DNA of 64,000 nt from an uncultured Bdellovibrionales bacterium. GTDB taxonomy: Bacteria; Patescibacteriota; Minisyncoccia; Moranbacterales; DUUL01. Position 1 is the first letter of the stretch. The number at the start of each line of letters is the position of its first letter. The notes below the pieces were generated by a model. That model did not search any database and had not been told where the DNA came from. It saw nothing but the letters and a program-made list of their open reading frames with translations. The translations under genes were made by a program, and so were the position numbers. Positions 5,776-44,923 of this stretch are shown here, one piece after another. The DNA is taken from positions 532 through 64,531 of the forward strand of contig CAYFUG010000004.1 in the NCBI GenBank assembly GCA_964346295.1, given 5' to 3'.

Positions 5776-6098
5776 GACATTTTCTCCTTTTTTTGGTTTA
5801 TTTTTCTATTTTAACCTCTTTGAATTTCAAAAACAAATCAATAGATCAAAATCAAAGAGGGAAAATTAGAAGAGCGTCGAACAAGTCGACTAGTTTGTTT
5901 AGCAGGGAATTGGATTTTTGTAAATAGCGGGATTTATAGGGCGGCTTTGATAAGAAAAGAGGGCCGCATAGTTGCCTAATTATTAGCTTCCCAGAAGCTT
6001 TAAAGCACATCGGTTTAGGCCGGTGTTTTTTGTTGGAAAAAATAAGATAGAACATTTTCGCCCCAGTAATTTTTTAGCTAAGATCCTTCGACTTTTTT

Positions 6099-6138
6099 CT
6101 TCGCTAGAGCTACGACGGACAAGCCGCTTGGGATGACA
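6099..6138. repeat. Short interspersed repeat, family A (CTTCGC...GCTAC.G..G.CAAG.CGCT.GGGATGACA)
   Basis: Related copies at 34324-34363 and 42283-42322. A related variant lies inside mnmA. Confidence 0.5.
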
Positions 6139-6195
6139 GTTGAAAAATTTTTAGATTTAGAGCGAAATTTATTGAATTACAATTCCATAAATTTG

Positions 6196-6257: not shown

Positions 6258-7505
6258 ATGGCTAATGATAAGGAATTCGGTAGATTTTTTAATTTAGAAA
6301 GACTTATTTCTACTGTTCCAGGTAAAATTCTGGTAATTCAGGGGCCTCGAGGAGCGGGCAAGACCCGAACTTTGAGGAAAATTGTTCGGGAATTAAGACT
6401 TGATTGTCACTGGGATTCTGGAGATAGTTTTAGATTACAGCAGCTATTCAGAGATCCGGAAGCAGCTAAGATTTTGCAGTATATCCAAAGCCGAGAGTGG
6501 TTAGTGGTAGAGGAAGCCCAGAAAATTCCCAATCTAAGAGAGGGGCTAGAAATTATAAGGAGGCATAAACTAAAACTAAAAATTATTCTGAGTAGTTCTT
6601 GGAGGCTAGATTTGGCTACTGCGCCTAAGGGCGAAGAGGAGCGGAGGACTTTTGGTCAAAATTTTTGGCAAGTAGATCAGCAGTTAGGATCAGAAGAAGA
6701 TCCTTGGGAGGAGCAAAAGACTATCATTGACTTGCTACCTCTTTCTCAGGCGGAACTTAACCAAAAATATACTCGGTTTCAACTGCGAGAATTGCTGCCT
6801 TGGTTTCTGATTTTTGGCACTTATCCTCAGGTGATAAGGGCGGCTAATAAGCCTCAAATTGAAGAATTTCTTGGGGAGTTAGTGTTTTCTCAGCTACTTC
6901 CAGAAGTGGTGATCCAGGGTAGAGTTAAGAAGCCAGAAAAACTCCTCCAGCTAAGCAAGCAAGTGGCTTTTCGGATAGGTGAGGAGCTTTCTCTTAACGA
7001 ACTTTCGGAATTGGTGGGGGTGGATGTTAAAACGATAGACCGCTACTTGGAATTGCTAGAAAAAGCCCTCATCATTAAGAAAATTTCACCTTTTAGTCGT
7101 AATTTGAAAAGAGAGATTGATTTTAAGGCTAAATATTATTTTTACGACACCGGAGTGCGCAATGCGCTAATTTCTCAATTTAATGAATTAGAAAATCGGA
7201 ATGATGGGGCGGCGTTATGGGAGAATTTTCTTGTGATGGAGAGAATTAAAATGTTTGAAATAAATCAAAAAAACGCCAGTTTTTATTTTTGGCGGACTTA
7301 CGATGGGCAGAGGGTAAATTGGATCGAGGAGACTAAAGAAAGACTGCGGGGAGGGGAATCTAAAGGTGAATTGCGAGGCTATCAATTTCAATGGAAGCAA
7401 ACTAACCGCAAGAGATCTAAAGCCCCTCAGGATTGGCTACGGACTTACCCAGTGACGAATCTTGAGATTATTAGGCCAAGTAACTATTTGGATTTTTTGA
7501 TTTAG
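6258..7505 (+). CDS. AAA+ ATPase of the AAA_14/DUF4143 type
   Basis: Walker A QGPRGAGKT. Overall architecture is shared with the ORFs at 7623 and 47103. Confidence 0.85.
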   Translation: MANDKEFGRFFNLERLISTVPGKILVIQGPRGAGKTRTLRKIVRELRLDCHWDSGDSFRLQQLFRDPEAAKILQYIQSREWLVVEEAQKIPNLREGLEIIRRHKLKLKIILSSSWRLDLATAPKGEEERRTFGQNFWQVDQQLGSEEDPWEEQKTIIDLLPLSQAELNQKYTRFQLRELLPWFLIFGTYPQVIRAANKPQIEEFLGELVFSQLLPEVVIQGRVKKPEKLLQLSKQVAFRIGEELSLNELSELVGVDVKTIDRYLELLEKALIIKKISPFSRNLKREIDFKAKYYFYDTGVRNALISQFNELENRNDGAALWENFLVMERIKMFEINQKNASFYFWRTYDGQRVNWIEETKERLRGGESKGELRGYQFQWKQTNRKRSKAPQDWLRTYPVTNLEIIRPSNYLDFLI

Positions 7506-7524
7506 TTTCTAGCTAAAATTAGCT

Positions 7525-7554
7525 AAAAACACCCCTAAAGCAGGGTGTTTTTTG
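7525..7554 (+). terminator. Intrinsic terminator
   Basis: AAAAACACCC-loop-GGGTGTTTTTT hairpin followed by a T-run. Confidence 0.7.
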
Positions 7555-7572
7555 AGCAAAGGGTTGACTTTT

Positions 7573-7632
7573 TGTAAATAAATGGTACCATGTTTAGACA
7601 TAAGATGTAAATAAATGGTACCATGTTTAGAC
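7573..7632 (+). repeat. 27-bp direct repeat x2 (period 33 bp) spanning the start codon of the AAA+ ATPase gene
   Basis: TGTAAATAAATGGTACCATGTTTAGAC at 7573-7599 and 7606-7632. The first copy yields a 6-codon mini-ORF, MFRHKM*. Confidence 0.8.
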
Positions 7633-8957
7633 GAAAAATCGAGAAAACTCTTTTAGAATGGAAAAATAGAGCAGAAAGGAAGCCTTTGATTTTAAGGGGT
7701 GCTCGCCAAGTAGGAAAAACTACTTTATTAGAGAGTTTTGCTCAAGAAAAATTTGCTGATTATCTGAAAATAAATTTTGATAATGGAGAAGATCTGAGGA
7801 ATTTTGAAAAAGTAGATAATTTAAAGGATTTTGAAGAAGTGGTTAAAGCCGTTTATCATAAACAGTTTAACAAAGACACTCTTGTTTTTATTGATGAAAT
7901 TCAAAATCTTCCTAATATAATCAAGCTTTTAAGGTTCTTTTGGGAAGACAGAAGAGAAATTCCAGTGGTAGCGGCGGGGTCGCTTTTGGAGGTAAAAATT
8001 AAACAAGAAGGCTTTTCTCTGCCGGTGGGAAGGGTAGAATTTGCCTATCTTTACCCCTTAAGCTTTTTTGAGTTTCTTGATGCCAGGGGAGAAGACCAAT
8101 TATTAGCCTATATTAAAGAGGCGAATTGGAAAAATCCTCTTGGTCAGACATTGCATCAAAAGTTAGAAGATTTTTTTCTGGAGTATGTTTTGTTGGGGGG
8201 TATGCCGGAGGTAGTAAAGACTTTTGTGAGGGAGGGTAGAGCAGATTTAGCAAGAATTTATCAGTCTTTGCTTCAAACTTATGCAGAAGATTTACATAAA
8301 TATTCCTCTCAATCCGAAGCTAAATACTTAAGATTTGTTTTCGATAATGCTCCTTTTTATGCTGGAAGTCTGGTTCATTATCAAAATTTTGCCCAGTCGG
8401 AATATCGCACTCGGGAGATGCAAGTAGCCTTCGAAGCCCTGCGGGATGCAATGCTCTTGGAAACCATTTTCTCTACCGGCTCTAAGCGCTTACCTTTAAC
8501 AGGTAAAAACAAGCGGCCTAAAAAGCTGCTTTTTCTAGATTCCGGGTTAGCAAGTTATAAAAGAGGTTTTGAAAGGAGTGACTTGAATTGGAACAGCTTA
8601 GATGATGCTTATAAAGGGGGAGTTTTTGAACAGACCATAGGTCAAAACCTCAAGTCTCTTTTTGCTAATGAGCAGAAAAAGCTTTTTTACTGGAGCAAAG
8701 AGAAGGCTCGGGGAGCAGCCGAGGTGGACTTCTGTTTCGAAAGTAGAGGCAAAATTGTGGGGCTGGAAGTTAAGGCGGGAGTGGCTACTCGAGCTCGTTC
8801 TTTGTTTAGTTTTGCTAGCCAAGTGGAAAATAGTGTGATTGTGAGAATTTATCCCGGACCACTTCGAAAAGAGCGAGTAAAACTAGGAGGAGATGAATTT
8901 TCTCTGGTTTCGCTCCCTTTTTACCTAATTGAAAGAGTTTTGGATTTTATAGATTAG
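7623..8957 (+). CDS. AAA+ ATPase of the AAA_14/DUF4143 type
   Basis: Walker A RGARQVGKTT, Walker B LVFIDEIQ, and a long C-terminal domain as in its paralogs. Confidence 0.9.
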   Translation: MFRRKIEKTLLEWKNRAERKPLILRGARQVGKTTLLESFAQEKFADYLKINFDNGEDLRNFEKVDNLKDFEEVVKAVYHKQFNKDTLVFIDEIQNLPNIIKLLRFFWEDRREIPVVAAGSLLEVKIKQEGFSLPVGRVEFAYLYPLSFFEFLDARGEDQLLAYIKEANWKNPLGQTLHQKLEDFFLEYVLLGGMPEVVKTFVREGRADLARIYQSLLQTYAEDLHKYSSQSEAKYLRFVFDNAPFYAGSLVHYQNFAQSEYRTREMQVAFEALRDAMLLETIFSTGSKRLPLTGKNKRPKKLLFLDSGLASYKRGFERSDLNWNSLDDAYKGGVFEQTIGQNLKSLFANEQKKLFYWSKEKARGAAEVDFCFESRGKIVGLEVKAGVATRARSLFSFASQVENSVIVRIYPGPLRKERVKLGGDEFSLVSLPFYLIERVLDFID

Positions 8958-8982
8958 AATTCTTTGCTAAAGAGTATATTTC

Positions 8983-9015
8983 AAAAACACCCCAATTATA
9001 ACGGGGTGTTTTTTG
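8983..9015 (+). terminator. Intrinsic terminator
   Basis: AAAAACACCCC-loop-GGGGTGTTTTTT. Confidence 0.75.
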
Positions 9016-9045
9016 ATAACATTAGAAGTCAGTGGGTAATTATCC

Positions 9046-9074
9046 TTGACATTTTTTTATAAATATGCTATTAT
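9046..9074 (+). promoter_or_regulatory. Module 1 promoter P1 (sigma70 consensus-like)
   Basis: TTGACA (9046-9051), 17-nt spacer, TATTAT (9069-9074) preceded by TGc. Followed by GTCCAGCTGAAATGG, which resembles the conserved start of the other module transcripts. Confidence 0.6.
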
Positions 9075-9127
9075 AGACCGTCCAGCTGAAATGGGGAGCA
9101 AAAACGGGGGCGAGTAGTGACACGATA

Positions 9128-9156
9128 TTGACAAGGTTTCAAAAATATGCTACACT
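9128..9156 (+). promoter_or_regulatory. Module 1 promoter P2
   Basis: TTGACA, 17-nt spacer, TGcTACACT. Followed by GTCAAGCTAAGAAAAGG (9162-9178), almost identical to 28912-28928 and 59154-59170. Confidence 0.7.
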
Positions 9157-9958
9157 GTATCGTCAAGCTAAGAAAAGGATTCAGGCGAGCACCTTAAAAG
9201 CACTATCATAAATTATTCTTTGAGGAGAGAGTAATCTATAAAAAGAGTTTAACAATTGGACCTTGAGGGCTAAAAAGATTTTTAAATTAGCTCCCTAGAA
9301 AGGTTGTTATTCAAATTAGATTACAAAGCGGATTTATTTCTCTCTCAAAGTTTTTTCATCGTTTTCTCATCGGCAAGAACGATGGGAACCGACAAGAGGT
9401 GGGAATGAATCCGTTTTTTATTGCTTTTGTGGCAAGCCCGATGGAGGAGAGAGTTAAAATCCAAAAGTTTCCGCGGTTACGAAGTCATAACTATTGAATC
9501 GCGAGAAAGTATTGGCCGTAGTTTTTTCTACACCTTCATCGGGCTTCTCGCAAAGTCGAGGAGCGATTCTCAGCGAAGAATCACTGAACCCAATTTAGAG
9601 CGTTTTAACAGCGCTCCTACAAAGAACCTTACAATCAGGAATTTCTAGAATTTATCTAAAAATTCCTAAAACAAATGTTTAAGCTTTGCTTTTGAAAAAC
9701 CTCCCCGCCGCTATTAACGCTTTGGCGGGGTGCTAAGCAAATCTAATTCTCACTCAGCCTTCAAGGCTGGCTCGGATTGATTTGTTGGCAGAGGAGAGAG
9801 GCTCTAGCAGAAAACTAGAGTTCCCGAGAGGAGAGAGCAAGGTCGAATCATGAACATTTCTTTTGTTTTAGCCGGTCTTTTATAAAGACGGGCGGACATC
9901 TGCCGGTAAGAAGTTTCAACGCAAATTTCTTGCTGGTGATGTCTCTCAACGGAGAGAC

Positions 9959-9977
9959 TGTTCTTTGAAAATCTTAG
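9959..9977 (+). promoter_or_regulatory. boxA-like antitermination motif (module 1)
   Basis: TGTTCTTTGAAAATCTTAG. The core TGTTCTTTGAAAA matches the Gram-positive rrn boxA consensus and the copies at 29130, 32104 and 59261. Confidence 0.55.
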
Positions 9978-10017
9978 TTACTGTTTAGTCTATTTTCTCC
10001 TTATTTTTAAGGTGAAA

Positions 10018-10110
10018 GGTGATTAGCTTCTTTAGGGTGGTTTGCCATTTGGTCATTGCAATTTGCAATTAGCAATTAGAAGGCAAGCCGCTGGAAAGGA
10101 GTTAATCACC
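10018..10110 (+). promoter_or_regulatory. Long imperfect hairpin following boxA (RNase III-like substrate)
   Basis: GGTGATTAGCTTCTTTAGGGTGGTTTGCC pairs with GGCAAGCCGCTGGAAAGGAGTTAATCACC. Pairs include G-U pairs. Confidence 0.55.
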
Positions 10111-10228
10111 AACAACCTTATTTCTAAATCCCGAAAAGGAAGGCAAAAGTAAAGGCCCGGTCCGCTTTGGGCGGATGGTCGGGAGCTACACTGACTTTTG
10201 CTGGAATTGGAGGGAGAAGGAGAGGATC

Positions 10229-11209
10229 ATGACCAATTTCGCGAGCAAATTTGACGGCAAGGGGATCCATGTAATCGCAACCGGTTCGGTGGACGGGGTT
10301 TTGACCACCGCGGCATTTTTGCGGGTGATCGGACTCCATGAGGAGAAGGCAGGGGTGGAGTTTACCCAGGCCTTCACGGTTGACAAGCTGAATCCGGCCC
10401 AGTGGCCGGAGGGGCGGCAGGTCGTTTTCGTGGACCTGGCGGTCAACAATCAGAACCCGGAGATGACGGCGGATTTCGTCCGGCGCATTCGGGAAGCGGG
10501 ACATGAGATCGTTGCCGTATGCGACGAGCACGACGCCGACGCCTGGAAGCGGGTGTTGGGGCAGGAGCCCTTTGAGGCCCTGATCGTAAAGCCCCAAAGT
10601 CAGAAAAAGGGCGAGGCCCAGTCCAGCGGCGCCATTTTATTGGAGGCGCTGGGGGACGAGGCCGATGACCACACTCGCGAGCTGTGCGAAGCCGCGAATG
10701 CCGCCGACCAAATGGATTTTTCCACCCATTTTGGCAGTTACGCCAATCGGGCGGTTAAGTCCGCCATGGGAGACAACTCCCGGCGGGTGCATTTGGCTGG
10801 GCACTTTGCTGCCAACCGGGAGCCGGACGAAGTTATCAGCAGCTGGTGCGCCGAGTACGAGGCGATTATCGCCACCCACGAGGAAGTCCTGGGAAACCGG
10901 GAAGACCTGGGAAGCGGGATCGTCCGGATCGACTGCACTGGCAAGAAGGTGGACATGACCACCTTGATGGGCCAGGTCTACGATCTGCCTGAAACGAAGG
11001 CCTGCCTGGTGATCGGGCCGGTGTATAACAAGGCCAAGGGCGGAATCGAGGTTATGGCCTCCTTCGGAACACGGATTGAAGGCTTCGACATTCAGGCCGC
11101 GATTCAGTCCGAAGGTGTTTCGGCCGGCGGCTTTGCCTCCAAGGCGAATGTCGATCTGGAAAACGAAAAGGCGGCCATTGAGGCCGTCAGAAAAGCGCTT
11201 AACGGCTAG
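10229..11209 (+). CDS. GC-rich cargo protein 1a (326 aa), weak DHH-phosphoesterase-like motifs; function unknown
   Basis: Start chosen at the ATG after GGAGGGAGAAGGAGAGG (the track ORF starts upstream at 10175). GC3-rich codons. Motifs HVIATGSVDG, VVFVDLAV and VAVCDEHDAD. Confidence 0.8.
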   Translation: MTNFASKFDGKGIHVIATGSVDGVLTTAAFLRVIGLHEEKAGVEFTQAFTVDKLNPAQWPEGRQVVFVDLAVNNQNPEMTADFVRRIREAGHEIVAVCDEHDADAWKRVLGQEPFEALIVKPQSQKKGEAQSSGAILLEALGDEADDHTRELCEAANAADQMDFSTHFGSYANRAVKSAMGDNSRRVHLAGHFAANREPDEVISSWCAEYEAIIATHEEVLGNREDLGSGIVRIDCTGKKVDMTTLMGQVYDLPETKACLVIGPVYNKAKGGIEVMASFGTRIEGFDIQAAIQSEGVSAGGFASKANVDLENEKAAIEAVRKALNG

Positions 11210-11685
11210 ACAGTAGCCCCGTTCGTAACTCTCCTCTCTGCTATTTTTATAGTAGAGCAGCGACGAGTGCGTTCGGGGCCTAGCCAAAGATTTTCGTGTG
11301 GTTCAGGGAAAGGAGTTTGTCGGCAACATTCGACAGCTCCTTCCTTCTAAGCTCGGCAACTGAAAGTTTTCAGCTGGTGGTTTTAGAAGGGAATAATGTT
11401 TCCCTAGAGAGTGTATCTCTAAGATATGCTCTAGTTCTTTGACAAGTCCTATTTATACTAGACTCTAAGCTCTGGAGGTTTGATTCTCAAGCTTTTCCCA
11501 TTCCTTAATTTCCTTAAATTCCTAGCTTTACCATCACTGCCTGAGAGCGCAAATACGAATATCCGTTGAAGTAGCGGAAAGTTGTCTAAAATTTGTGCTT
11601 GCAAGTGGTGATGGTAAAAACCCTGGCCGGAATGTTTCCGGTGGGGGTTGGAAGTAATTTTTGAAAAAAGGAAAAAGGAGAAGTC

Positions 11686-12459
11686 ATGGAAAACAATTCC
11701 AAAGAGATGGCGAAGGTTGTGGCTGAGGGATTAGTCGGATTTTTGTCTGGCACTCTTATACTGTTTATTATGGCAAGGATTGCTAGTCCAGGGCCTTCAG
11801 TGTTCCTTGGAATAGCTACAAACCTCCTGTTCTTCATGGGCAGGATTAACTGGATTGGGGGGTGGGAGAAAAAAATACTTTTCATTTTCACTCCAATTAT
11901 CCTCTGGATGGCTCTTATAGGAGCCTGGGGGTTGGGATTATTTCAAATGCCCGACCCAATCAGGCCACCCGTAATCGAAGAGGGGCCGGAGGTGGAGGCC
12001 GTTGAGCTTGATGCGGAAACTTTTATTCCCCGAGTTGAGCGAGAAGAGGGGAAGTTAAGAGTTTCCCTGCATCGACTTAGGCCGTCTACAGAGAAACTCT
12101 TTTTTGCCGTTCAAGAGAACGGCTATTTCTTTCTCGAGTTTAATTTTGGGGGAGGCCGTCTTGCTAAAATAGAGCGCAGAGCCTTCGCCTCCAGCGAAAA
12201 CCCCAGGGAAAGATGGGATTACAGGCTGGAGGGAGGGGCAAGCTCTTTGCTCGAATGGCTTCAGGAAGAGAGAGTTGCTCTTGGAGACCGCGACATGGAA
12301 GATTTCGAAAAATTCATGGAGTGCTTCGGTTTCCAGGGCGAAATCGCCAGGGCGTTTTTCTTGGCCTGCCAGTTTGGAATGGACTGGCCGGAAAAATATT
12401 CACTCGAGACCCAGTTGGCTCGAGAGCTTTTCCGGGAATTAATTTCCGGGGAGCTGTAA
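11686..12459 (+). CDS. Cargo protein 1b: N-terminal membrane segments plus soluble domain, unknown function
   Basis: AAGGAG lies 6 nt upstream of the ATG. Two or three hydrophobic helices at the N-terminus. Intermediate GC. Confidence 0.75.
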   Translation: MENNSKEMAKVVAEGLVGFLSGTLILFIMARIASPGPSVFLGIATNLLFFMGRINWIGGWEKKILFIFTPIILWMALIGAWGLGLFQMPDPIRPPVIEEGPEVEAVELDAETFIPRVEREEGKLRVSLHRLRPSTEKLFFAVQENGYFFLEFNFGGGRLAKIERRAFASSENPRERWDYRLEGGASSLLEWLQEERVALGDRDMEDFEKFMECFGFQGEIARAFFLACQFGMDWPEKYSLETQLARELFRELISGEL

Positions 12460-12758
12460 AAATAGGACTACTAAAGAATAGGATGGGGCGCGCGTTGGAT
12501 CGTCAACCGCGCCTCCCCTATCATCCGGTGAGACCGGATCTGATGAGGTTTTCTGAATAACATTTCAGAGTCAAAGCCGAAATAGGGATTGTTTCTTTGT
12601 AATGTTTTTAGTGGTAAAAGTTAGCCTTTTGTGGGCTGTAGTGTCAAATTCAAAAACCTCTCTCCTCCTCTATTGGTTATAAATACTAGCTATTTAGTCA
12701 CTAGAGTTGAATTTGATGCTCAGCCCAAAGGAGGCTAAGTAAATAAAAAGTAAAAACA

Positions 12759-12785
12759 TCTCTTATCCAGGGGGTGTTTTTTGAT
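12759..12785 (+). terminator. Terminator-like hairpin, likely 3' end of module 1
   Basis: ACATCTC-loop-GGGGGTGT stem with G-U pairs, followed by TTTTTT. Confidence 0.45.
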
Positions 12786-12858
12786 GGAAATTTTGATTAA
12801 TTGGAGTTTTTTGCTAAAATTCAAAAAAGATCTGAGAAATAAAAGGATAAAAAAAATT

Positions 12859-15192
12859 ATGGAAAAGGAAAATCAACAACCATTAGAAAAGGGTAAGCCT
12901 GAAGAAGTTAGGAGGAGCCCCGAAAGTCAAGCAGGGAATTTCTGGAAATGGGAAGATTTAGAATTAGGTGAATTAACCCTAAGAAGAGTAGCGGAATTGA
13001 AAGCACAGATTGAAGCAGAAGGGCGAAGAGAACAAGAAGGCCTGAATAAAGAGCAAAAAGAATACAACAGTCATCGATTAGTAGTTTTTGAGCCAGGAAG
13101 AAGCTCTGGAGAGTTAGTTACTAGAACTTTAGGGAAAGTTGGCCTTGTAAAAGAAAACCCTCAGGAGCTGAAGGTGGAGCCAGGGAAAGTTTACGATGTG
13201 ACAATTGTAGAAGAGGTTTCTGGGAAGGGAAAGGGAGGATTTTTTCAATTAAGAGTAGAAGAGGAAATTGATCCGGATCAAATCGATGACCGGACTTTGT
13301 TTCGCTATAATAACTTGGAAGTAAAAGAGGCGGCTGAAAATCCAAAAGGAACTAATTTGCGACAGCTGTCTTTTGAGCAGAGAAAGGGAAGATGGGGCGC
13401 AGTTTATCGAGATTACAAAGGATCTGATTTGGATGGGGTGGAGCGTACTGGGCCTCGCTTAGTTACTCTCAATGAAGAGAATTTTTCGGTTGGAGAGGTC
13501 AAAGAAGGAGAGGAGTATCTGGTAGTACTTGGAGAAACTGGCAGAGAAATACCCACTAGAAGAGGTGGAAAAATGGTTTTGCAAAAAGGAATGGTTCTGA
13601 AGCCGGCTCGAGAATGGCTAATGCAGCCTCGCTTTAATCGCTTGGGTGGAATCGAGTTGTATTTGCTGCGGGGAGTCAAAAAGGAGAGTCTTGTTCAGGT
13701 TGGCTCTCGGGAAGATATTGAAAAAAAGCTTCCAGTTGAGATCCCTTCTGAATACCGGGCCAAGTTAGAAGCAATGTTGAAAATAAAAGAGTGGGAAAAA
13801 GGGCAGAATCAAGAACGAGATAAAATAGCAGTGGAATTTATCAGAGGATTTCAAGAGGCTTGGGAGCAGGCGGAGGCGAGGTATTGTGAAGAAGAGGTGG
13901 AGCTAAAGGAAGTCAGTGAGGATTTTTGCCGGTTTGAGTGGGATAATCAGGATTATACTTTTGAGCCTTATCTTCCACCTTCGGAATTAGGAAGAGCGCC
14001 CGGCTTTTTTGTGAAAAAGGGTGATAAACCAGGAATTAAAAGCAGTGAAGATCCGGTGAGTGAGCATCCTTATTTTAAGGCTTGGGAGGAGCAGAGAGGG
14101 CAAGACCCGGATTATCTTTTAAAGACAGAAATTGTGCGGGCTTTAATGAAGTATTCTCAGGAAGATCCCTTAGAGATTGATTGGGGGGATAGCGGCATTT
14201 TCGATAGTTCTGCAATGCGAAATTTAGTAGGGGATATTAGATCTCAGGGGGCAGAGATGGATTTAGACTTGGATAACCAAGGGGCAGCAGTGGCTAGGGT
14301 TAGTAATGAGGAGGCTAAAGAGGTTTACTTAGGAAGCTCGGGATTAGGCCAAGGAAGATTGAAAGGCAGTTTGGTTTTTCGGTCAGCCTTAGTGGAACAA
14401 GGAGGGCGGTATTTTATTCGGTATGTGGTGGACCCGGAGAAGACTGAGTTAAAAGTAAATTCAAAGACACTTCACCTTAAATTGAAGGCAAGAATCAAAA
14501 CGGAAATTCTGGATCCGTTGATAGAAGAATTGTCTCAAGCAACCAAAGAGGGAGAGCAGTTGATCAAAATGGGCGGTCAAGAAGAAGAGGGGGAAGTAGC
14601 CAGAGGGGGTTCTGGGGAAACATTGGAGACCGATCAAGGAACCCCGGGAGCTTTTGATCCAGGTGAAATGGAAGGAGGAGGAGATCAAGAAAGCTTCTCA
14701 AAAGGATCCGCACCAAACAGTTATCGGGAGCTTAATCTAGGGGAATTATCAGATGATGAATATGGACGGGCAGGAGCCTGTGCAAATGAAGTATTGAATT
14801 ATGCTAAGTATGATCGGAACCTTTCTTTTAGTGTCGGGGAGGCAAATAGTACTAGAGATGAATTGACTCAACTGGTTGCTTTTGAGAGGCGATACAATCC
14901 GGAGGGCCCTATCGCTGAGGCTATTCAAGGGACTGAGCGCTTAACTGGTCAGGACTGTGCTGTTGTTTGGAGGATTTACAAAAGGGAAGAGATTAGCGCA
15001 ACTTCTGAAAATTCGGAGAGCGCCCAGGGGAGTCCAGAAGTAGCAGAGGAAGTCTTAGGGGAGCCTGTTCCCGCTCAAGGAGATACTCAACAAGCATCTC
15101 CTACGGCAGGCTCGTTGGCTGATTTAAAAGCGATGTTTGGAGGAGAGGGGTCCAAAAAGAAGAATAAAAAATCTTCCAAAAAGAAAAAATAA
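12859..15192 (+). CDS. Large acidic/Lys-tailed hypothetical protein
   Basis: Long ORF (track start 12781; alternative ATG at 12784). I favour ATG 12859 (MEKENQQ...). No SD and host-like composition. C-terminus is KKKNKKSSKKKK. Confidence 0.7.
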   Translation: MEKENQQPLEKGKPEEVRRSPESQAGNFWKWEDLELGELTLRRVAELKAQIEAEGRREQEGLNKEQKEYNSHRLVVFEPGRSSGELVTRTLGKVGLVKENPQELKVEPGKVYDVTIVEEVSGKGKGGFFQLRVEEEIDPDQIDDRTLFRYNNLEVKEAAENPKGTNLRQLSFEQRKGRWGAVYRDYKGSDLDGVERTGPRLVTLNEENFSVGEVKEGEEYLVVLGETGREIPTRRGGKMVLQKGMVLKPAREWLMQPRFNRLGGIELYLLRGVKKESLVQVGSREDIEKKLPVEIPSEYRAKLEAMLKIKEWEKGQNQERDKIAVEFIRGFQEAWEQAEARYCEEEVELKEVSEDFCRFEWDNQDYTFEPYLPPSELGRAPGFFVKKGDKPGIKSSEDPVSEHPYFKAWEEQRGQDPDYLLKTEIVRALMKYSQEDPLEIDWGDSGIFDSSAMRNLVGDIRSQGAEMDLDLDNQGAAVARVSNEEAKEVYLGSSGLGQGRLKGSLVFRSALVEQGGRYFIRYVVDPEKTELKVNSKTLHLKLKARIKTEILDPLIEELSQATKEGEQLIKMGGQEEEGEVARGGSGETLETDQGTPGAFDPGEMEGGGDQESFSKGSAPNSYRELNLGELSDDEYGRAGACANEVLNYAKYDRNLSFSVGEANSTRDELTQLVAFERRYNPEGPIAEAIQGTERLTGQDCAVVWRIYKREEISATSENSESAQGSPEVAEEVLGEPVPAQGDTQQASPTAGSLADLKAMFGGEGSKKKNKKSSKKKK

Positions 15193-24118: not shown

Positions 24119-24122
24119 AACG

Positions 24123-24264
24123 GAGCCTTACTCATTTTGAAAATTTCGTTGTTGAAATCCGGGCTTCCCTTTCACCGTACACTTCAGTACGGCTCAAGCA
24201 AAGCCTACCTGCCTGTCGGCAGGCAGGGATTTCGCCTAGAACTCTCCTAAAATGAGAAAGTCTC
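24123..24264. repeat. MITE-like palindromic element, family B
   Basis: TIRs GAGCCTTACTCATTTT / AAAATGAGAAAGTCTC. Core TCACCGTACACTTCAGTACGG hairpin. Confidence 0.65.
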
Positions 24265-25342: not shown

Positions 25343-28009
25343 GTGGAGAGACTTGTTGTCGATAGAAGTGAAGAGAAGAGAAACGGACCGGAAAGAAATC
25401 CGGGGTTTTTTCAGTTAGCTGCTTATCCAAAAGAAGATTGGGATTTGTTAAGGGCTGTGAATAAGGTGTTGTCGAAAGATAGTAGTCGAGTTTATGGTTT
25501 GCAGAGGGCTTTATTGGATTATCCCGAACTAGGGAACGAAGAGACAAAGGAGGTAATTTTAGAAAAGATGGAAGAAGAACTTTTAAGCATTTATTCTGAT
25601 GATTTAAGACTGGAAAATGGAATAAACTCGATAAAAGATGCTTTTGAGGGAATAAGGGGGATTTATTTAGGGAAAATAGAGACAGAGAAGGTTGTGATCG
25701 AGCGAGTCAACCAGCTTTACCCAGCGGAGTTGGAAGCCTTTGAGGATTTATTGGGCGACTTTATAGTTTATAAAAAAGTTTTACCTAAAGATGTTATTCA
25801 GGCAATTTACAGAAATAGGCTAGAGAAAATTGGAAATGTAAATCTTAATAATCTTTTTAGTTATGGAGATGTAGGCTTAGAAAAAGAGTGTTTAGGGGTT
25901 AATGAAAGAATTTTTGAAGCTCTAGAGGAGCTAGCCTTGTTTTCTGATATTTCCGAAGGTCAGAAAGCGGAACTTTTTCAGTCAGTGGCAAGGGGGTTAT
26001 TTGGAAGGGAAAAAAAGTTTTTTGTAGACCCAGAAAAGGCTTTGAGATTTGTAAGAGTCACTTTTCAAAGTCCAGAGACCAAGCGCTATGCCAAGCCACT
26101 TTTCATGAATTATTGGTGGGAGTGGGAGAATGCTATTGAAAAAATGCAGTCAGAAATTGATTTTGAAGATCAGAGCAAGGAGAATATTAGGAAAATAGCA
26201 GAGTTGGCGGAAATTTACGGGGCAGTTTACGGAGAATTGATAAAGAGGGGAATCGAACCTAATAATGATGGGGCAGTTTACATGTTGAATTTTATTAACC
26301 AGGCGGGAGGAGTAGACGATTTTTACCTTAACTTAAAGGTTAAGCAAGCCGTTTTTCTTATTCAGGCTGATGCTTGCCTTTATTATGAGGAAGGCGAGGA
26401 TTGGCAAAAGGAAGGAAGGGCGCAGTTGATTTATAGTGCGGCTCAAACTTTGGGAACTGATCTGCAGCTTAGTGGCGAGGAGCTGCAGCAATTTTTAACT
26501 GATATAAAAGGTTTTTTTGGGCAAAAATTAACTGCCGAAATTGAACCTCTTGTTAAGGGGCAGGTGGCAGCTCCGGGAGTAGAAGGGCATTTTGATGATG
26601 ATTTTGATCTGGTGCTACTGGAGGAGGAGAGAGGCAATGAAGGTGATAGGCTGAAGTTTAGCGAATTTATTAAGTTGAATTACTACGATGTTATTGAAGA
26701 GGGCGATTTTCTGGATTTGATGTTTATGCAAAATTTATTCATCAAGAAGCGAATTTCCCAGGAGTTAGGCGTGGCTTTGCATAACTTAGAGTTGAGAGCT
26801 CAGAATCAGTTTTTAAACTTCATTAAAAATGCCTCCCAGGAGAGAGTGAGACAAGTGGCAGAATTCGTAAAAAATCCAGCAGAAGAAGAGCAGCGCTTAA
26901 ACCGCCTGAGAGTCTTTCTTTCCTTGGAAGAGGGCCATTTTTCAGGAGATCAGCTATTGGACTTGCCTTCCAGGATTGATGCTGACCAAGCGCAGCAAGT
27001 TTTTGACCAGTATGGGAGACTGGTTCAAGACGCTTTTTCGGAGCAGTCGACCCTTCAAGAAGTGCTAAAGAATCCGGAGGATTTGGCCAAAATTGATCAA
27101 GAAAAAATCACTCAAAATTTGCTCTTCCGAGGCCAAAAAATCCTTCAAAGGCTAATTGAGTCTAGCGAGCCAGAGAGAGAGGCAGAAAGTGTTTTATCCA
27201 GCCTTTTAGCACAAAAATGGCAAATTCAACTAGCGGGAGCAGTTTTTAGGGAAGGGATCGAGGCTGGGATGAGTTTAGATGATTTAGAGGGTGGCAGAAT
27301 TGAGGTTTTAACCGTCCAAGACTTAATTCAAAAACCAGAATTGGTGGCTAAAATGAGGGATATTTATTCTAATAATTTCTCCAAAAAACCTGATTTGCAA
27401 GGAGCGGTTTTGCAAGGATTTGATCAAAAAATGACAGAAGGAGGCGTTAATTCGGAGTTTGCTTTGGCCTTTGTGGGCGAAGAATTGGTGGCTTTTAGCC
27501 GCAGTGATCATGTAGACGAAAAAACTCGCTATTTTGCTTCTCTAAACTCTTCTTATGGCGGTGCCAAGTTTGGAGAAGCTCTGAGGAGGAAAAGAGAGGC
27601 TCAGGTGGGAGAAAATTTTGATATTCGGGCTCATAGTGAGCCAGAAAGTGCCATGAGTACGCTGTATATTGGCCCAGAGGGAGGATTTATAGCCGATGGG
27701 GTAGAATTTAATTATCACAACACCGAGGCTAATTTATTCAGTATTACTAGACAAAAAACCCCGCCCAGTTACTATGCTTGGAGTAAGCCTCGAGAAGAGC
27801 TAGTCAAAGAGGCGAAAGAACTTGCGGATAGTGAGATAAGTAGCATTTCTCTAGAAAAGGGTAAGCCTCTGGTTTTAAGCCTCCAGGGGCTAGAAAATAC
27901 ACTAGTGGCACTAAAAACCCTACTCAATGAGCAGGGCGGCCAGTTGACCAATTATTGGTTTCAGGGCGGAAGATATTTTTTAGCTATAGAAAACCCTAAA
28001 TCAAGCTAA
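25343..28009 (+). CDS. Large hypothetical protein (up to 888 aa)
   Basis: Long ORF with a GTG track start; the first ATG is at 25568. No motif recognised. Confidence 0.7.
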   Translation: MERLVVDRSEEKRNGPERNPGFFQLAAYPKEDWDLLRAVNKVLSKDSSRVYGLQRALLDYPELGNEETKEVILEKMEEELLSIYSDDLRLENGINSIKDAFEGIRGIYLGKIETEKVVIERVNQLYPAELEAFEDLLGDFIVYKKVLPKDVIQAIYRNRLEKIGNVNLNNLFSYGDVGLEKECLGVNERIFEALEELALFSDISEGQKAELFQSVARGLFGREKKFFVDPEKALRFVRVTFQSPETKRYAKPLFMNYWWEWENAIEKMQSEIDFEDQSKENIRKIAELAEIYGAVYGELIKRGIEPNNDGAVYMLNFINQAGGVDDFYLNLKVKQAVFLIQADACLYYEEGEDWQKEGRAQLIYSAAQTLGTDLQLSGEELQQFLTDIKGFFGQKLTAEIEPLVKGQVAAPGVEGHFDDDFDLVLLEEERGNEGDRLKFSEFIKLNYYDVIEEGDFLDLMFMQNLFIKKRISQELGVALHNLELRAQNQFLNFIKNASQERVRQVAEFVKNPAEEEQRLNRLRVFLSLEEGHFSGDQLLDLPSRIDADQAQQVFDQYGRLVQDAFSEQSTLQEVLKNPEDLAKIDQEKITQNLLFRGQKILQRLIESSEPEREAESVLSSLLAQKWQIQLAGAVFREGIEAGMSLDDLEGGRIEVLTVQDLIQKPELVAKMRDIYSNNFSKKPDLQGAVLQGFDQKMTEGGVNSEFALAFVGEELVAFSRSDHVDEKTRYFASLNSSYGGAKFGEALRRKREAQVGENFDIRAHSEPESAMSTLYIGPEGGFIADGVEFNYHNTEANLFSITRQKTPPSYYAWSKPREELVKEAKELADSEISSISLEKGKPLVLSLQGLENTLVALKTLLNEQGGQLTNYWFQGGRYFLAIENPKSS

Positions 28010-28762
28010 TTTTCGGGAATAATCCCAGTGAAATTCGAACAGGGATTTGTGCATTTGGTAAATATTGGGATCTTGGATTAGCATAGCGATTTTGTGTTCT
28101 TCTGAAAGGGAGATGTAAATGACTTTTCCTTCGTAAATTTGCATTACAGAACCCGAGAAGGGGTATTTTTCTTGATCAATAAGCTTAATTTCTGTAATAT
28201 CTCGCAGATAATTTTGCAAGTAATTTTTGGCAAAGGCAGAGTCCAGGACCAGAACCTTTTTGTTAAGGTTAAGCTTGGATCTTTTTTTCATGTAGCACTG
28301 ATTGATTTTTTCGGTGTATTTGATAACAGCCTCCAGGTCGGCATAAGTGTAAATAATTTCTTGACTGGTGAGAGTGTCTTCCAGGGCCTCTTGAATGCCT
28401 TCTAGTCCCTCAAAATAGCGGACGTCAGGTTTCTGAGAAACTAAATTAAATTCTGATGTCAGTGCATCTAGATTGGCCGCTAGGTTTTTATGAGTTTTTT
28501 CTAGTTGGGAAGATTGATCGCGGAGTAATTCTTCTAATTGATTAGGGTGTTGAGGATAAAAATGAGTCAATTTTCCCTTTTTTTTGCTAATTACCAGGCT
28601 TTTTTCTTCTAAAGATTCTAAAACATTGTAAACCACCCCCTTTTGGAGGGTGGTTTTTTTAATGATTTCGCTGGCAGGAACTGCTCCAGAGCGAAGCAGG
28701 AATTCGTAAATAGTGGCTTCATTAGGGGTCAGTCCAACTTGAGTAAGGATGTCTTGGTACAT
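28001..28762 (-). CDS. TrmB-family transcriptional regulator (paralog 1)
   Basis: N-terminal wHTH GLTPNEATIYEFLLRSGAVPASEIIKKTTLQKGVVYNVLESLEEKSLV. Divergent from the module 2 promoter. Confidence 0.8.
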   Translation of the reverse strand: MYQDILTQVGLTPNEATIYEFLLRSGAVPASEIIKKTTLQKGVVYNVLESLEEKSLVISKKKGKLTHFYPQHPNQLEELLRDQSSQLEKTHKNLAANLDALTSEFNLVSQKPDVRYFEGLEGIQEALEDTLTSQEIIYTYADLEAVIKYTEKINQCYMKKRSKLNLNKKVLVLDSAFAKNYLQNYLRDITEIKLIDQEKYPFSGSVMQIYEGKVIYISLSEEHKIAMLIQDPNIYQMHKSLFEFHWDYSRKLA

Positions 28763-30526: not shown

Positions 30527-31306
30527 ATGAAACGGATTTTTGTTGTCCCTATCAACGATGGGGAGGCGGTAGAGATTAGGAATCTCCTACAGGATGGCGG
30601 TGAAGTGGTTGTGGAAAGCGTCCTCCGTTGGGGAGCCCGATGGGAGAAGCTGGAACCGGAGGTGGTGGCGGAGATCGAAAGGCTTCGCTCCCTTAATCCG
30701 GGAGTTCAGATCTACGGCGTGGAGCTGGCCGGCCCCAATCAGTGGGGGGCTCGCAACATCGACCACCACAAGTACCAGGATGAGGATCGGAGTAATTCCA
30801 AGTCCTCCCTGGAGCAAGTGGCGGAGTTGTTGGGCGTCCAGCTGACCCGGCACCAATTTTTGGTTTCGGAGAATGACAAGGGTTGGATCCCGGCGCTAAT
30901 AGCGGCCGGAGCCAGTCCCGACGAGATCGAACTGGTGCGGGCGCAGGATCGCCAGGCCCAGGGGGTTACCCCTGACGACGAAGCCCAGGCTCTTCGGGAT
31001 ATCGAGGCGGCCCAGTGGCAAGGTCGGAAGGTCTGGCTCCAGTGTCTCAAGGGGGCCACCTCGGCCCACACTGACCGGCTCTTTGGTCAGTTTGACGAAG
31101 CCCTGACGGTGGATGGGGTCAACGGAAAGTGGATCTATTTTGGTCCGCGATCCGAAGATTTCTTCGCCCTCACCGAAGGGGGCACCGAAGGGATACGCTG
31201 GAAAAGCCCTCGACCAGGGGGGTACTCCGGGGCGGAAAAGCCCCAGGAGGAGACCCAGGAAGCAATCCGGAATTTTTTTGGGAGTAATTCCCTTACCTCT
31301 TTTTAG
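30527..31306 (+). CDS. GC-rich cargo protein 2c (259 aa), contains NIDHH motif; unknown function
   Basis: Start taken at the ATG after TAAGGAGGAGACACTT, 14 nt after the 2b stop. The track ORF 30119-31306 has an implausible N-terminal extension that overlaps 2b. Confidence 0.75.
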   Translation: MKRIFVVPINDGEAVEIRNLLQDGGEVVVESVLRWGARWEKLEPEVVAEIERLRSLNPGVQIYGVELAGPNQWGARNIDHHKYQDEDRSNSKSSLEQVAELLGVQLTRHQFLVSENDKGWIPALIAAGASPDEIELVRAQDRQAQGVTPDDEAQALRDIEAAQWQGRKVWLQCLKGATSAHTDRLFGQFDEALTVDGVNGKWIYFGPRSEDFFALTEGGTEGIRWKSPRPGGYSGAEKPQEETQEAIRNFFGSNSLTSF

Positions 31307-32703: not shown

Positions 32704-32836
32704 CAAAAGGCCCGAAAGAGTCTGGCCAACGCGCTAAATCTTTCGGAGGGACGAACTTGTTGAACACAACATTTTCGTCCCCTCTACTAGCAACTTAATT
32801 TGAGACTTGATCTTTTATTGAGTTGCTTGAGAGAAT
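32704..32836 (+). repeat. 133-bp direct repeat, copy 1 (structured element flanking cargo gene 2f)
   Basis: 131/133 identical to 34003-34135. Contains GGCCCGAAAGAGTCTGGCC and GAGGGACGAA...TTCGTCCCCTC hairpins. Confidence 0.9.
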
Positions 32837-32924: not shown

Positions 32925-33971
32925 ATGGGTAAATTTCAGGAAATCACACTGGAATTATTGTTGGAAAATGAAGTTTTGAGGAAGTATCTTCTCAAGGCAA
33001 GAATTGGTCCAGCTAAAAAAGGCGACGGTGCTTTTGTGGGGACTTATGATATTGCCCCGAAGGAGTTTCGGAGTTTTGGAATTGTTTTGCCCAGGGGCGG
33101 GATGATTATTCCAGGGGCAGATCCTGTCAAGTTAAAGGAAATGGTCAAGGAGCCTGAGCGCCGGCGTGAGGCGGAGGACTTGGCAAATCGTCGTGCTGTT
33201 GAAAAAGATTATCTCAATCAGGTGAAAGAGATAATTGCTGAAGCTGGCCTCACGGATATTGAAGTGGTGGAAGAAGACGGAGTGGACTTCCATAGTATCG
33301 GCGCCACCAGCTGGCACAAGAGCTTTTTGGTAAGAGAAGGAGAGAAAATCTTCAGTCTTCACAGCGAAGAGGAGCCGTATCGTGGCTTAGATGACGATGG
33401 TTCGTACGAGCCGTGGAGGACGGAGTTTACTCCGTTGGAAGAGGTGAAATCCTTCCTTGAAGAGGAGGCGCGTCTTGTTGGTCCGAGAAAAATGTTTGCT
33501 GATCGGATCAGGCGGCTTATTGATATAAGCCACAATGTTGGTCAGCAAGGGCCAGATGAAACTGGCTGGGATCGCCCTCGAGTGGAATTATTTTTGTACG
33601 ATGACTATAAAAAAGGCAGGGACTGGGGTTTTTTCGGTCATCGTTGTCAGGGTATCTCTTCGGCCCACAGGATTTACTATCGAAAAAAACTCTATGAGAT
33701 TACCGAAGAAGGCATTTCTCGCCTTGAGTATGAAATCGGAGAAAGGGAGGAGGCGCTAGAAGCAAGACGAGCGATGCTCAAAAGACTCTTCGAAGAGAAG
33801 GGCAGAGTTTTTGAGGAACTCAAAGAAGAGAAAGATTGCTATGCCGGAAAGTCACTGGCAACCGGCAAGGCAAAGTACGATGAGTGGACTGAAACGCGCT
33901 ACTTTCTCGGCGACACAGAAGTTACCGAGGAAGAGCGTGATTGGCTGAAGGGCTTACCTAAGGATAATTAG
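32925..33971 (+). CDS. Cargo protein 2f (348 aa), Glu/Arg-rich, unknown function
   Basis: AAAAGGGGGATGCC-ATG. The track start at 32889 is a TTG. Confidence 0.75.
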   Translation: MGKFQEITLELLLENEVLRKYLLKARIGPAKKGDGAFVGTYDIAPKEFRSFGIVLPRGGMIIPGADPVKLKEMVKEPERRREAEDLANRRAVEKDYLNQVKEIIAEAGLTDIEVVEEDGVDFHSIGATSWHKSFLVREGEKIFSLHSEEEPYRGLDDDGSYEPWRTEFTPLEEVKSFLEEEARLVGPRKMFADRIRRLIDISHNVGQQGPDETGWDRPRVELFLYDDYKKGRDWGFFGHRCQGISSAHRIYYRKKLYEITEEGISRLEYEIGEREEALEARRAMLKRLFEEKGRVFEELKEEKDCYAGKSLATGKAKYDEWTETRYFLGDTEVTEEERDWLKGLPKDN

Positions 33972-34002: not shown

Positions 34003-34135
34003 CAAAAGGCCCGAAAGAGCCTGGCCAACGCGCCAAATCTTTCGGAGGGACGAACTTGTTGAACACAACATTTTCGTCCCCTCTACTAGCAACTTAATTT
34101 GAGACTTGATCTTTTATTGAGTTGCTTGAGAGAAT
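34003..34135 (+). repeat. 133-bp direct repeat, copy 2
   Basis: See 32704-32836. There are two substitutions between the copies. Confidence 0.9.
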
Positions 34136-34243: not shown

Positions 34244-34363
34244 TCCTTTGCTAAAGCTATGGTCGGCAGGCTTTTGTAAGGGGGTTGCTGAGCAGGGAAA
34301 GGCTAAGATCTCTTGACTTCCTCCTTCGTCAAAACTTCGGAGGACAAGACGCTCGGGATGACA
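34244..34363. repeat. Two adjacent family-A short repeats
   Basis: CCTCCTTTGCTAAAGCTATGGTCGGCAGGCTTTTGTAAGGGGG resembles the mnmA-internal copies. CTTCGTCAAAACTTCGGAGGACAAGACGCTCGGGATGACA resembles 42283-42322. Confidence 0.5.
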
Positions 34364-34373
34364 AAGAAAAAAA

Positions 34374-42125: not shown

Positions 42126-42282
42126 TTAGTAGTTTTTGATTTTTAGTTCTTAGTTAATTTCAGAAGGGAATAATTTTTTGGCGTTGCTAACTAAAAATAC
42201 ACAGCTATTGTCATTCCGACTGAAGCGAAGCGAAATGGAGGAATCTTAGCTGAAAAATAATATAAGATCCCTCGACTCCCTC

Positions 42283-42322
42283 CTTCGCCAAGGCTACGGC
42301 GGGCAAGGCGCTCGGGATGACA
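42283..42322. repeat. Family-A short repeat (intergenic copy)
   Basis: CTTCGCCAAGGCTACGGCGGGCAAGGCGCTCGGGATGACA. A second repeat type, GTCATTCCGACTGAAGCGAAGCGAAATGGAGGAATC, lies at about 42208-42245. Confidence 0.5.
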
Positions 42323-42370
42323 AACTAAGAATTTTAGAAGCTATACTTTATTGGCAATACCAATTTTTTT

Positions 42371-44218: not shown

Positions 44219-44320
44219 AAATTTTGGTGTCAAAATCTCCGCTACTCCCTCACCGTAACTCTCAGTACGCCTCGCTCGCTGCTCGATTTCTCCTAAAAAT
44301 TTCCTAAAAAATGAAAGTCC
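44203..44320. repeat. 118-bp MITE-like palindromic element, family B, overlapping the GT4 stop
   Basis: TIRs GACTTCCATTTTTTGAAAATTTT / AAAATTTCCTAAAAAATGAAAGTCC. Core CTCACCGTAACTCTCAGTACG. Confidence 0.75.
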
Positions 44321-44768: not shown

Positions 44769-44923
44769 TTTTCAAACCCGCTTTCATCTTAGGGCTTCAG
44801 CGAGGCGCAGCAATTTTTAATATTTTAATGATTGAATTTTAAATAAGCAGAGCAGGAAAAACAAAAACAGCCCTTTTAGGGCTGCTTGAAAGCTTATTTT
44901 TATTCTAAATATAGCAAAGCAAT

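Follow-up and report, generated by a model that had tools for sequence, protein, structure and literature searches.

Module 1, a transcription unit on the forward strand of the 64-kb stretch of DNA analysed here (the window), occupies positions 9046-12783 and carries two protein-coding genes. Judged by analogy of its parts it would resemble a ribosomal RNA (rRNA) operon in its working, and it is not one. With somewhat more than even confidence, and from the arrangement of signals in the sequence, we read it as an rRNA-operon-like transcription and RNA-processing platform for protein-coding messenger RNAs (mRNAs). The evidence comprises boxA-like sites repeated along the transcribed strand, stems predicted to enclose each open reading frame (ORF), a candidate hammerhead ribozyme with covarying relatives, and tandem consensus promoters with transcript starts complementary to a downstream trailer.

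The window contains three paralogous modules, of which module 1 is one; a promoter, the transcript 5' motif GTCAAGCTNAGAAAAGG and boxA-like GTTCTTTRAMAA sites are common to them all. The repeating unit of module 1, or cassette, runs from a hairpin or ribozyme to boxA, a further hairpin and then a Shine-Dalgarno (SD) sequence with its ORF. The encoded proteins are referred to as cargo, and loci numbered with the prefix L (L001, L128 and so on) are related loci carrying homologues of the first of them, cargo 1. Coordinates are collected in Table 1.

boxA-like sites

The GTTCTTTRAMAA pattern occurs five times in the 64 kb against 0.25 copies expected, always on the forward strand and always inside one of the three modules. 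Allowing one mismatch from GTTCTTTGAAAA, the site in the module 1 leader, adds a sixth copy at 32853 with the same strand and the same confinement. The copy at 32105 fits exactly the published consensus of gamma-proteobacterial boxA, GYTCTTTAANA (PMC5725501). Related loci, among them L001, L128 and L137, also carry boxA, and across such loci 25 copies lie on the cargo strand as opposed to two on the other.

A hairpin ends 0-4 nt 5' of most copies, as boxB precedes boxA in the leaders of rRNA (rrn) operons. The copies lie within transcripts, up to 3 kb from the promoter, and their placement in module 1 is that of an rrn-type Nus site, the consensus being found on the transcribed strand both 3' of the promoter and in the spacer.

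Stems enclosing the reading frames

For the 24 nt following each boxA, the best pairing was sought among approximately 12,800 positions of the window. The strand after the first boxA of module 1 (9972-9995) has its best partner at 11191-11220, and that after the second (11446-11469) at 12441-12470. Both partners lie at the next stop codon, as does the top-ranked partner of the first boxA of module 2; for module 3 the stop-codon partner ranks third. Each ORF is therefore enclosed, on prediction, by a boxA-anchored stem, in the manner of 16S and 23S rRNA. The stem sequences vary between cassettes with complementarity kept. In L128, the closest relative with a leader like that of module 2, AGAATCAGAAAG after boxA pairs with CTTTCTGATTCT directly after the stop codon.

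Inside the stem, five of the six cassettes have a tract complementary to the SD sequence (anti-SD) 18-51 nt after boxA, which could mask the ribosome-binding site across a long hairpin of some 100 nt. In module 1 the minimum free energy (MFE) fold is predicted to pair this tract with the SD of the first ORF, across a hairpin of 93 nt. The non-coding stretches that follow the leader are, like the leader, strongly structured compared with shuffled sequence; windows over these parts have z from -4 to -8, and the three long hairpins give z values of -8.6, -7.65 and -7.3.

A hammerhead ribozyme family

Canonical hammerhead cores were first noticed in the boxA flanks of related loci. A motif scan gave 18 matches in 11 loci (three being copies of one contig), all on the cargo strand and one of them in the window, 55 nt after the second ORF. 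This candidate type III ribozyme has the CUGAUGA and GAAA core, the cleavage triplet AUC and three helices: helix I of 7 bp and helix III (CCCUA/UAGGG) are fully paired, and GGU/GCC closes helix II.

A covariance model built without the window copy recovers that copy with 25.2 bits (E = 8.4e-5) as the sole significant match in the window. The same model finds 16 hammerheads in 10 related loci (L124, L131, L132, L137, L138, L142, L143, L152, L157 and L194), on the cargo strand, where they flank the cargo-1 gene or its neighbours on the 5' side, the 3' side or both. Relatives carry two or three per locus, and at L143, L152 and L157 these lie on both sides of the gene. The alignment of the 12 sequences of the family has 98.3% of its cells paired; both sides have changed in 12 of 15 pairs, with covariation in all three helices. 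The covariation score is 0.861, compared with 0.243 for shuffled and no more than 0.16 for slid alignments. The RF00008 threshold of 48.5 bits is not reached, the L142 relative scoring 32.1 bits and the window copy giving no Rfam match even at E = 10. Related hammerheads would be missed by routine annotation because they fall below the Rfam gathering score.

Of the hammerheads at related loci, about half have a boxA-like motif behind them, several of them directly. In the window the ribozyme is followed by the degenerate boxA-like GTTTCTTTGTAA, a long hairpin with no ORF behind it and a terminator-like hairpin, which ends the unit. A window-wide covariance search with filters off found no further live or decayed hammerhead, in the leader or elsewhere.

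Promoters and transcript ends

An earlier note on this DNA, made from the letters alone, had likened the start of module 1 to the P1/P2 arrangement of rrn operons. The two consensus promoters are indeed present in tandem where it placed them, with 11 and 10 of 12 consensus positions matched, and each has TG before the -10 element. They belong, with the promoters at 28878 and 59120, to a repeat family of four copies that runs into the transcript as GTCAAGCTNAGAAAAGG. P2 shares 75-86% identity with its counterparts in modules 2 and 3, and P1 is a 65% copy within the family. The likeness to rrn operons extends to the hairpin before boxA, the boxA in the spacer and the complementarity of 5' end and trailer, with the qualification that the trailer also folds locally. 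Tandem promoters recur, 123 bp apart, at L137, and a strong promoter stands before cargo-1 homologues at L001, L003, L128, L137 and L194. A scan of genome contigs for the exact GTCAAGCTNAGAAAAGG pattern returned only chance matches in unrelated phyla, and a scan of viral contigs none.

The motif GTC(C/A)AGCT... that the earlier note saw behind both promoters reads GTCAAGCTAAGAAAAGG after P2 and the diverged GTCCAGCTGAAA after P1. The trailer CCTTCCTTCTAAGCTCGGC, complementary to the 5' end, exists and lies at 11339-11357, one base from the 11340-11358 first given. The segment 11331-11360 is the second-best duplex partner of the P2 5' motif in the whole window. The P1 transcript has a 3' partner of its own, a perfect 10-nt complement between CCAGCTGAAA (9082-9091) and TTTCAGCTGG (11368-11377), nested outside the P2 pair. 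Complementarity of 5' end and trailer is present in all three modules.

The leader

Between P2 and the first boxA lies an untranslated leader of about 0.8 kb. What the earlier note said of this part of the module largely stands. The leader is without a credible ORF: none exceeds 75 aa, and blastx against all ORFs of the fetched loci detected no pseudogene remnant. It is rich in stems, the MFE of 9163-10228 being -377 kcal/mol, and every 300-nt window from 9300 to 10200 has a z value between -4 and -7.5 (-3 to -7.5 for windows over the leader as a whole), compared with values near 0 for flanking genes. The boxA-like site and the 93-nt hairpin (10018-10110), which folds as part of a longer imperfect hairpin, are where they were described, as is the second SD-led ORF. 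The first ORF has a GC content of 59.6% in place of the approximately 62% first given. The Rfam search that the note had proposed places the leader in no known RNA family: over 8900-12900, at the gathering threshold and at E <= 10, only chance-level matches were returned.

The leader contains four exact copies of the SD-like 10-mer GAGGAGAGAG, none with a start codon behind it. Six exact copies occur in the window; four are those of the leader and the fifth is a complement at 12658. The leader copies are partly base-paired in the predicted fold. The second of them (9438-9459) has its best window-wide duplex partner 3.2 kb downstream, in the CT tract CCTCTCTCCTCC (12649-12678) of the terminal hairpin of module 1. 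A general role of the motifs as strands of long-range stems was considered and rejected, since only this copy has a top-ranked partner.

Could the leader, along the lines of the earlier note, be a big structured non-coding RNA in its own right, such as a sponge for proteins or ribosomes with repeated GAGGAGAGAG sites, the downstream genes being merely co-transcribed? Strong structure over 0.8 kb, the lack of any coding remnant and the four strand-specific motifs would suit such an RNA. The strand-specific motif, extended as GAGGAGAGAG(T), recurs in the long leaders of L001, L137, L142 and L194, and in the leader pair of L137 and L142 hairpins are kept through 11 compensatory changes. We nevertheless think this explanation unlikely. 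The leader has no sequence homologue: alignment with the L001 leader reveals no similarity beyond promoter and boxA, and in an all-versus-all blastn of 32 upstream regions the window is linked to other loci only through the promoter, apart from a link of module 2 to L128. At L001, L128, L137, L142 and L194, too, a strong promoter is followed by a long leader before the first boxA or ORF is reached. The leaders of the closest relatives (64-67% protein identity) are long and unrelated (L001, L128) or only 60 nt (L124), and those of modules 2 and 3 span only 140-250 nt. Rfam gives no match, the leader is not set apart from the first ORF by a terminator or processing signal, and boxA, stem and anti-SD tie it to the gene. 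The leader is probably not a conserved stand-alone RNA gene.

Is it instead a graveyard in which earlier cassettes have lost their ORFs, leaving hairpin, SD-like tract and degenerate boxA, and without function of its own? To this we attach the same low probability. A module built of repeated units, with an ORF-less unit at its 3' end (12591-12740), would fit this. The GAGGAGAGAG motifs resemble the SDs of the module yet lack start codons, ATTCTTTGAGGAG at 9215 resembles a decayed boxA, and leader length varies freely among relatives. Yet no decayed hammerhead or protein remnant was detected in the leader, its structure is far above that of shuffled sequence, and selection is suggested by the retention of the exact 10-mer, in four copies here and in distant lineages too.

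The leader is most likely an accessory, fast-evolving structured spacer in which the non-initiating SD-like elements protect or tune the transcript. It may thus be a selected part of the transcript that evolves fast, and may carry protective or titrating SD-like sites.

Cargo genes

Both ORFs have SD sequences. Neither cargo 1 nor cargo 2 has a match in Pfam, NCBIfam, PHROGs or PADLOC. Cargo 1 has 114 homologues in Patescibacteria, and its AlphaFold2 model (pLDDT 96.2) is matched by Foldseek to PAP phosphatase, PggH, GdpP, NrnA and RecJ with E values of about 1e-9 and a probability of 1.0. The model shows the two-domain DHH-DHHA1 fold with the conserved motifs GSxDG, D69 and D99-E100-H101. Residues at the catalytic positions are invariant, the signature being DEH in place of the canonical DHH. 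On the predicted structure cargo 1 is a divergent branch of the DHH/DHHA1 family, probably acting on short oligonucleotides or nucleotide signals. Cargo 2 matches only itself among 1.84 billion representative proteins.

Across 32 distinct loci (36 rows with duplicate contigs) the cargo-1 gene has, almost without exception, a GC content 5-22 points higher than its flanks; in a listing of 38 loci with homologues this excess spans genome GC values of 0.32-0.62. Its GC content follows that of the genome, which argues against simple recent transfer. This is an old family, found widely among these bacteria, and phage and viral collections contain none of its members.

The homologue of L177 (4968-6023), a distant lineage, lies 540 nt upstream of a 23S gene (6564-10932) with a group I intron. 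Each gene has its own promoter, and that of the 23S gene has a start region, GCTCAAGAT, similar to the start motif of the modules. Embedding of cargo 1 in an rRNA operon was considered and rejected, for in L177 it adjoins 23S and yet has its own promoter and terminator.

In module 2, the ORF at 30527-31306 (259 aa, DHH motif) has over 100 homologues in Patescibacteria and matches the PADLOC entry DHH_CorA, the NrN-like hydrolase of CorA-type III CRISPR (clustered regularly interspaced short palindromic repeats) systems, with E = 3e-31. The only gene of module 3 (59421-60554) corresponds to the first 377 aa of the 576-aa Csx30 and shares 92.3% DNA identity over 1104 nt with positions 8026-9129 of the type III-E locus L192, which encodes Csx29, an RpoE-like sigma factor, Csx31, Csx30 and gRAMP. 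The module 3 copy has a new start and a new stop; because of these, at such identity to a genuine locus, it is taken as a recently captured fragment, and the modules can therefore take in foreign gene fragments.

Table 1. Features of module 1, in order along the window (kcal/mol values are predicted folding energies)
Feature	Position	Strand	Remarks
Promoter P1, TTGACA-17-TGcTATTAT	9046-9074	+	11/12 consensus matches, extended -10
P1-transcript 5' motif CCAGCTGAAA	9082-9091	+	perfect 10-nt complement of 11368-11377 TTTCAGCTGG
Promoter P2, TTGACA-17-TGcTACACT	9128-9156	+	10/12 consensus matches, extended -10
P2-transcript 5' motif GTCAAGCTAAGAAAAGG	9162-9178	+	exact copies at 28912 (module 2) and 59154 (module 3)
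Hairpin-dense untranslated leader, ~0.8 kb	9163-9940	+	lineage-specific; no ORF remnant, no Rfam match
Four exact SD-like GAGGAGAGAG motifs	9222, 9444, 9791, 9828 (span 9222-9837)	+	no start codon behind
boxB-like hairpin GTCTCTC-AACG-GAGAGAC	9941-9958	+	ends 1 nt before boxA-like site 1
boxA-like site 1, GTTCTTTGAAAA	9960-9971	+	one of five GTTCTTTRAMAA pattern copies in the window
5' strand of stem enclosing ORF1, GTTACTGTTTAG	9977-9988	+	9972-9995 has its best window partner at 11191-11220
Anti-SD tract ATTTTCTCCTT	9992-10002	+	predicted MFE pairing with ORF1 SD (10217-10227), across the 93-nt hairpin
Long imperfect hairpin, including the 93-nt hairpin	10008-10120	+	-54.3 kcal/mol, z = -8.6, 39-nt arms
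Cargo gene 1, predicted DHH/DHHA1-fold phosphoesterase, 326 aa	10229-11209	+	GC 0.596, GC at third codon position 0.75
3' strand of stem enclosing ORF1, CTAGACAGTAGC	11206-11217	+	overlaps stop codon; 12 bp with 9977-9988, two of them G-U
Trailer	11339-11377	+	11339-11357 complements P2 5' motif, 11368-11377 complements P1 5' motif
Hairpin (11408-11432) and boxA-like site 2, GTTCTTTGACAA (11434-11445)	11408-11445	+	
5' strand of stem enclosing ORF2, AGTCCTATTTATAC	11445-11458	+	93% complementary to 12456-12469
Long hairpin in 5' untranslated region of ORF2	11520-11625	+	-42.5 kcal/mol, z = -7.65
Cargo gene 2, orphan protein of 257 aa	11686-12459	+	hydrophobic N-terminal part; GC by codon position 0.55/0.39/0.54
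3' strand of stem enclosing ORF2, GTAAAAATAGGACT	12456-12469	+	overlaps stop codon
Type III hammerhead ribozyme candidate	12514-12590	+	predicted cleavage after C12522; 55 nt after ORF2
Degenerate boxA-like GTTTCTTTGTAA	12591-12602	+	directly 3' of ribozyme
Long terminal hairpin with no ORF behind ('empty' cassette)	12619-12740	+	-49.7 kcal/mol, z = -7.3
Terminator-like hairpin and U run, end of module 1	12752-12783	+	-11.8 kcal/mol, z = -2.45

Proposed mechanism and assessment

How might such a unit work? TrmB-type regulators, encoded divergently next to modules 2 and 3 and homologous modules, would gate very strong promoters. NusB/NusE would bind each boxA (as RNA, GUUCUUUGAAAA), so that the polymerase would withstand Rho and pausing along a transcript that is long, structured and poorly translated. 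With boxA tethered to the polymerase, as in the rrn antitermination complex, the distant strands of each stem could be helped to meet. RNase III, acting at the long duplexes, and the hammerhead would then cut the polycistronic RNA into single-gene mRNAs. With their ends kept base-paired and the SD unmasked, these may be stable and highly expressed messages.

The divergent TrmB-like regulators probably control the module promoters. In the window they are two paralogues of 36% identity, at 28001-28762 (-) and 58052-58837 (-), each divergent upstream of its module promoter (modules 2 and 3); divergent TrmB genes also occur at L001, L003, L128 and L194, and module 1 has none adjacent.

Several observations weigh against this reading of module 1. 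In L001, L124, L158 and L177 the strand after boxA pairs locally or has no clear partner at a stop codon, and among the other boxA loci surveyed the enclosing-stem rule is clear in L128 and not clear in those four, L145 or L189. Local competitors exist for every long-range stem of module 1. In the MFE fold 9166-9173 pairs with 9972-9979, and 9620-9627 pairs with boxA. The trailer can fold by itself into a hairpin (11341-11392, -22.6 kcal/mol, z = -3.2), making the outer stem of 5' end and trailer less secure than the inner ones. The anti-SD tracts are only moderately unusual in rank (top 0.06-4.5%). Since the first boxA comes only where the 0.8-kb leader ends, it can give the leader itself no protection. 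L177 has GTTCTTTAAAAC near the cargo gene but a different sequence, GCTCTTAAATCAG, as the likely boxA of its 23S leader. Finally, the window hammerhead could be slow or inactive given its 32-nt helix II, its 3-nt loop I and the lack of an Rfam match.

Least probable of the explanations weighed, and in our view quite improbable, is that the GTTCTTTGAAAA sites are RNase cleavage sites or TrmB DNA operators and not Nus boxA, the stems being mRNA-stabilising or terminator hairpins of an acquired island: the divergent TrmB-like genes beside modules 2, 3 and homologous modules, the compositionally foreign cargo and the recent transfer into module 3 would fit, but the sites match the boxA consensus, keep to the cargo strand (25 copies to two) and lie within transcripts as far as 3 kb from the promoter, behind hairpins as in rrn leaders, module 1 has no TrmB beside it, and the cargo-1 family is old, widespread and absent from phage and viral collections.

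A bolder extension of the rrn-like platform, more doubtful than either alternative for the leader and a shade less so than the operator explanation, is that the modules form a Patescibacteria-specific platform for gene capture and expression. ORFs, foreign gene fragments among them, would be slotted between boxA with its 5' strand and the 3' strand, as the Csx30 fragment of module 3 would fit, and released by ribozymes and RNase III as end-paired RNAs, which might even be ligated into circles where hammerheads lie on both sides. The cargo set of the modules comprises two DHH phosphoesterases, one of them NrN-like, and the Csx30 fragment, and would point to interference with type III CRISPR signalling, or its control, in the symbiont or its host.

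Should the rrn-like reading of module 1 be correct, the Nus/boxA machinery and long-range processing stems, thought specific to rRNA, would have been reused for protein messages in a major uncultured group, and bacterial hammerheads, whose role is still largely open, would gain a concrete one. It would also explain the 35-45% non-coding content of some Patescibacteria loci. Promoter, boxA and enclosing stems together would provide a signature of highly expressed or recently acquired genes, and the GC excess of the cargo with the captured Csx30 fragment would offer a testable link to gene transfer and type III CRISPR biology.

Genomic setting and other features of the window

The window is a segment of bacterial chromosome with genes for GcpE, SecD/F, GyrA, MnmA, MreC/D and RNase P RNA, the last a bacterial class A molecule at 55953-56363 (144.6 bits). 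Homologues of its unusual genes come from sources named as Patescibacteria, Portnoybacteria, Uhrbacteria and Taylorbacteria. Against a background GC content of about 0.42 there are three GC-richer islands, at approximately 10-11 kb, 29-32 kb and 59.4-60.6 kb.

The window contains no gene for an integrase, transposase or reverse transcriptase and gives no meaningful PHROG match. A phage or mobile-element origin of the module was rejected on the absence of these enzymes from the window and of homologues from phage or viral collections. An integron-like cassette array was likewise rejected, the window lacking an integrase and the repeats being RNA-type elements specific to the transcribed strand.

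A 133-nt direct repeat (32704-32836 and 34003-34135; 98% identical) flanks the last gene of module 2 (approximately 32925-33971), which is of lower GC content; it looks like a duplication from cassette insertion. Families of intergenic repeats of 45-85 nt, mostly just 3' of genes, are REP-like (repetitive extragenic palindromic) or terminator-like, and one contains CACCGTA...CAGTACGG; copies are found at 24122-24206, 44200-44284 and 49634-49718, at 6079-6147, 34304-34372 and 42263-42331, and at 34223, 41275 and 41953. Tandem 33-nt repeats lie directly 5' of genes at 7573-7638 (an AAA_14/DUF4143 ATPase at 7623) and 47018-47128 (an ORF at 47103), and may be operator arrays. A perfect 28-nt inverted repeat with a 20-nt loop (44924-44999) is positioned inside or at the start of the ORF at 44886-46835.

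Comparison with known systems

With an rrn operon module 1 shares tandem consensus promoters, a hairpin with boxA in the leader and a further boxA in the spacer, long-range stems predicted to flank each product, complementarity of 5' end and trailer, and a product GC content above that of the genome. It differs in that the enclosed segments are ORFs with SDs and homologous proteins, in having boxA before nearly every cassette, in the predicted masking of SDs by anti-SD tracts, in the hammerhead and in the 0.8-kb leader before the first boxA. Identity with an rrn operon was therefore rejected; there is no 16S, 23S or 5S rRNA in the window, where Rfam at the gathering threshold finds only RNase P RNA.

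The STAB-SD of the Bacillus cryIIIA mRNA is a non-initiating Shine-Dalgarno sequence that acts as a stabiliser in the 5' untranslated region. The leader of module 1 similarly places SD-like purine tracts without start codons in a long untranslated region, with the differences that it has four identical 10-mers, in a structured 0.8-kb leader, and that these are partly paired.

Cargo 1, as modelled, has the two-domain fold of NrnA, PggH, GdpP and PAP-phosphatase with acidic and histidine motifs at equivalent positions, and departs from them in its DEH signature, the lack of a Pfam or NCBIfam match and only 10-14% identity to solved structures.

A role in processing polycistronic RNAs has been proposed for gene-flanking hammerheads (PMC3088659, PMC6765202). 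Those of prophages (Perreault et al. 2011, PMC3088659) are likewise of type III and lie between genes on the coding strand of polycistronic units, presumably cutting these to gene-length mRNAs. The context of module 1 differs in being chromosomal and non-phage, in Patescibacteria, and in coupling the ribozymes to boxA and enclosing stems; module 1 itself contains a single hammerhead, whose helix II is unusually long.

boxA outside rRNA operons has been described 5' of suhB and other protein genes (PMC5725501) and of CRISPR arrays (PMC7665894). As in those cases of Nus regulation, boxA would act here in the 5' region of a long, poorly translated transcript that is not rRNA. The differences are the several putative boxA copies per transcript, each beside a stem strand, and a phylum without prior boxA study.

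Our search of the literature found no description of these parts combined around protein genes, in chromosomal Patescibacteria and with GC-rich cargo. This comparison suggests that the ingredients are known, namely the leaders and processing stems of rrn operons, boxA outside rRNA and gene-flanking hammerheads, and that their combination is new.

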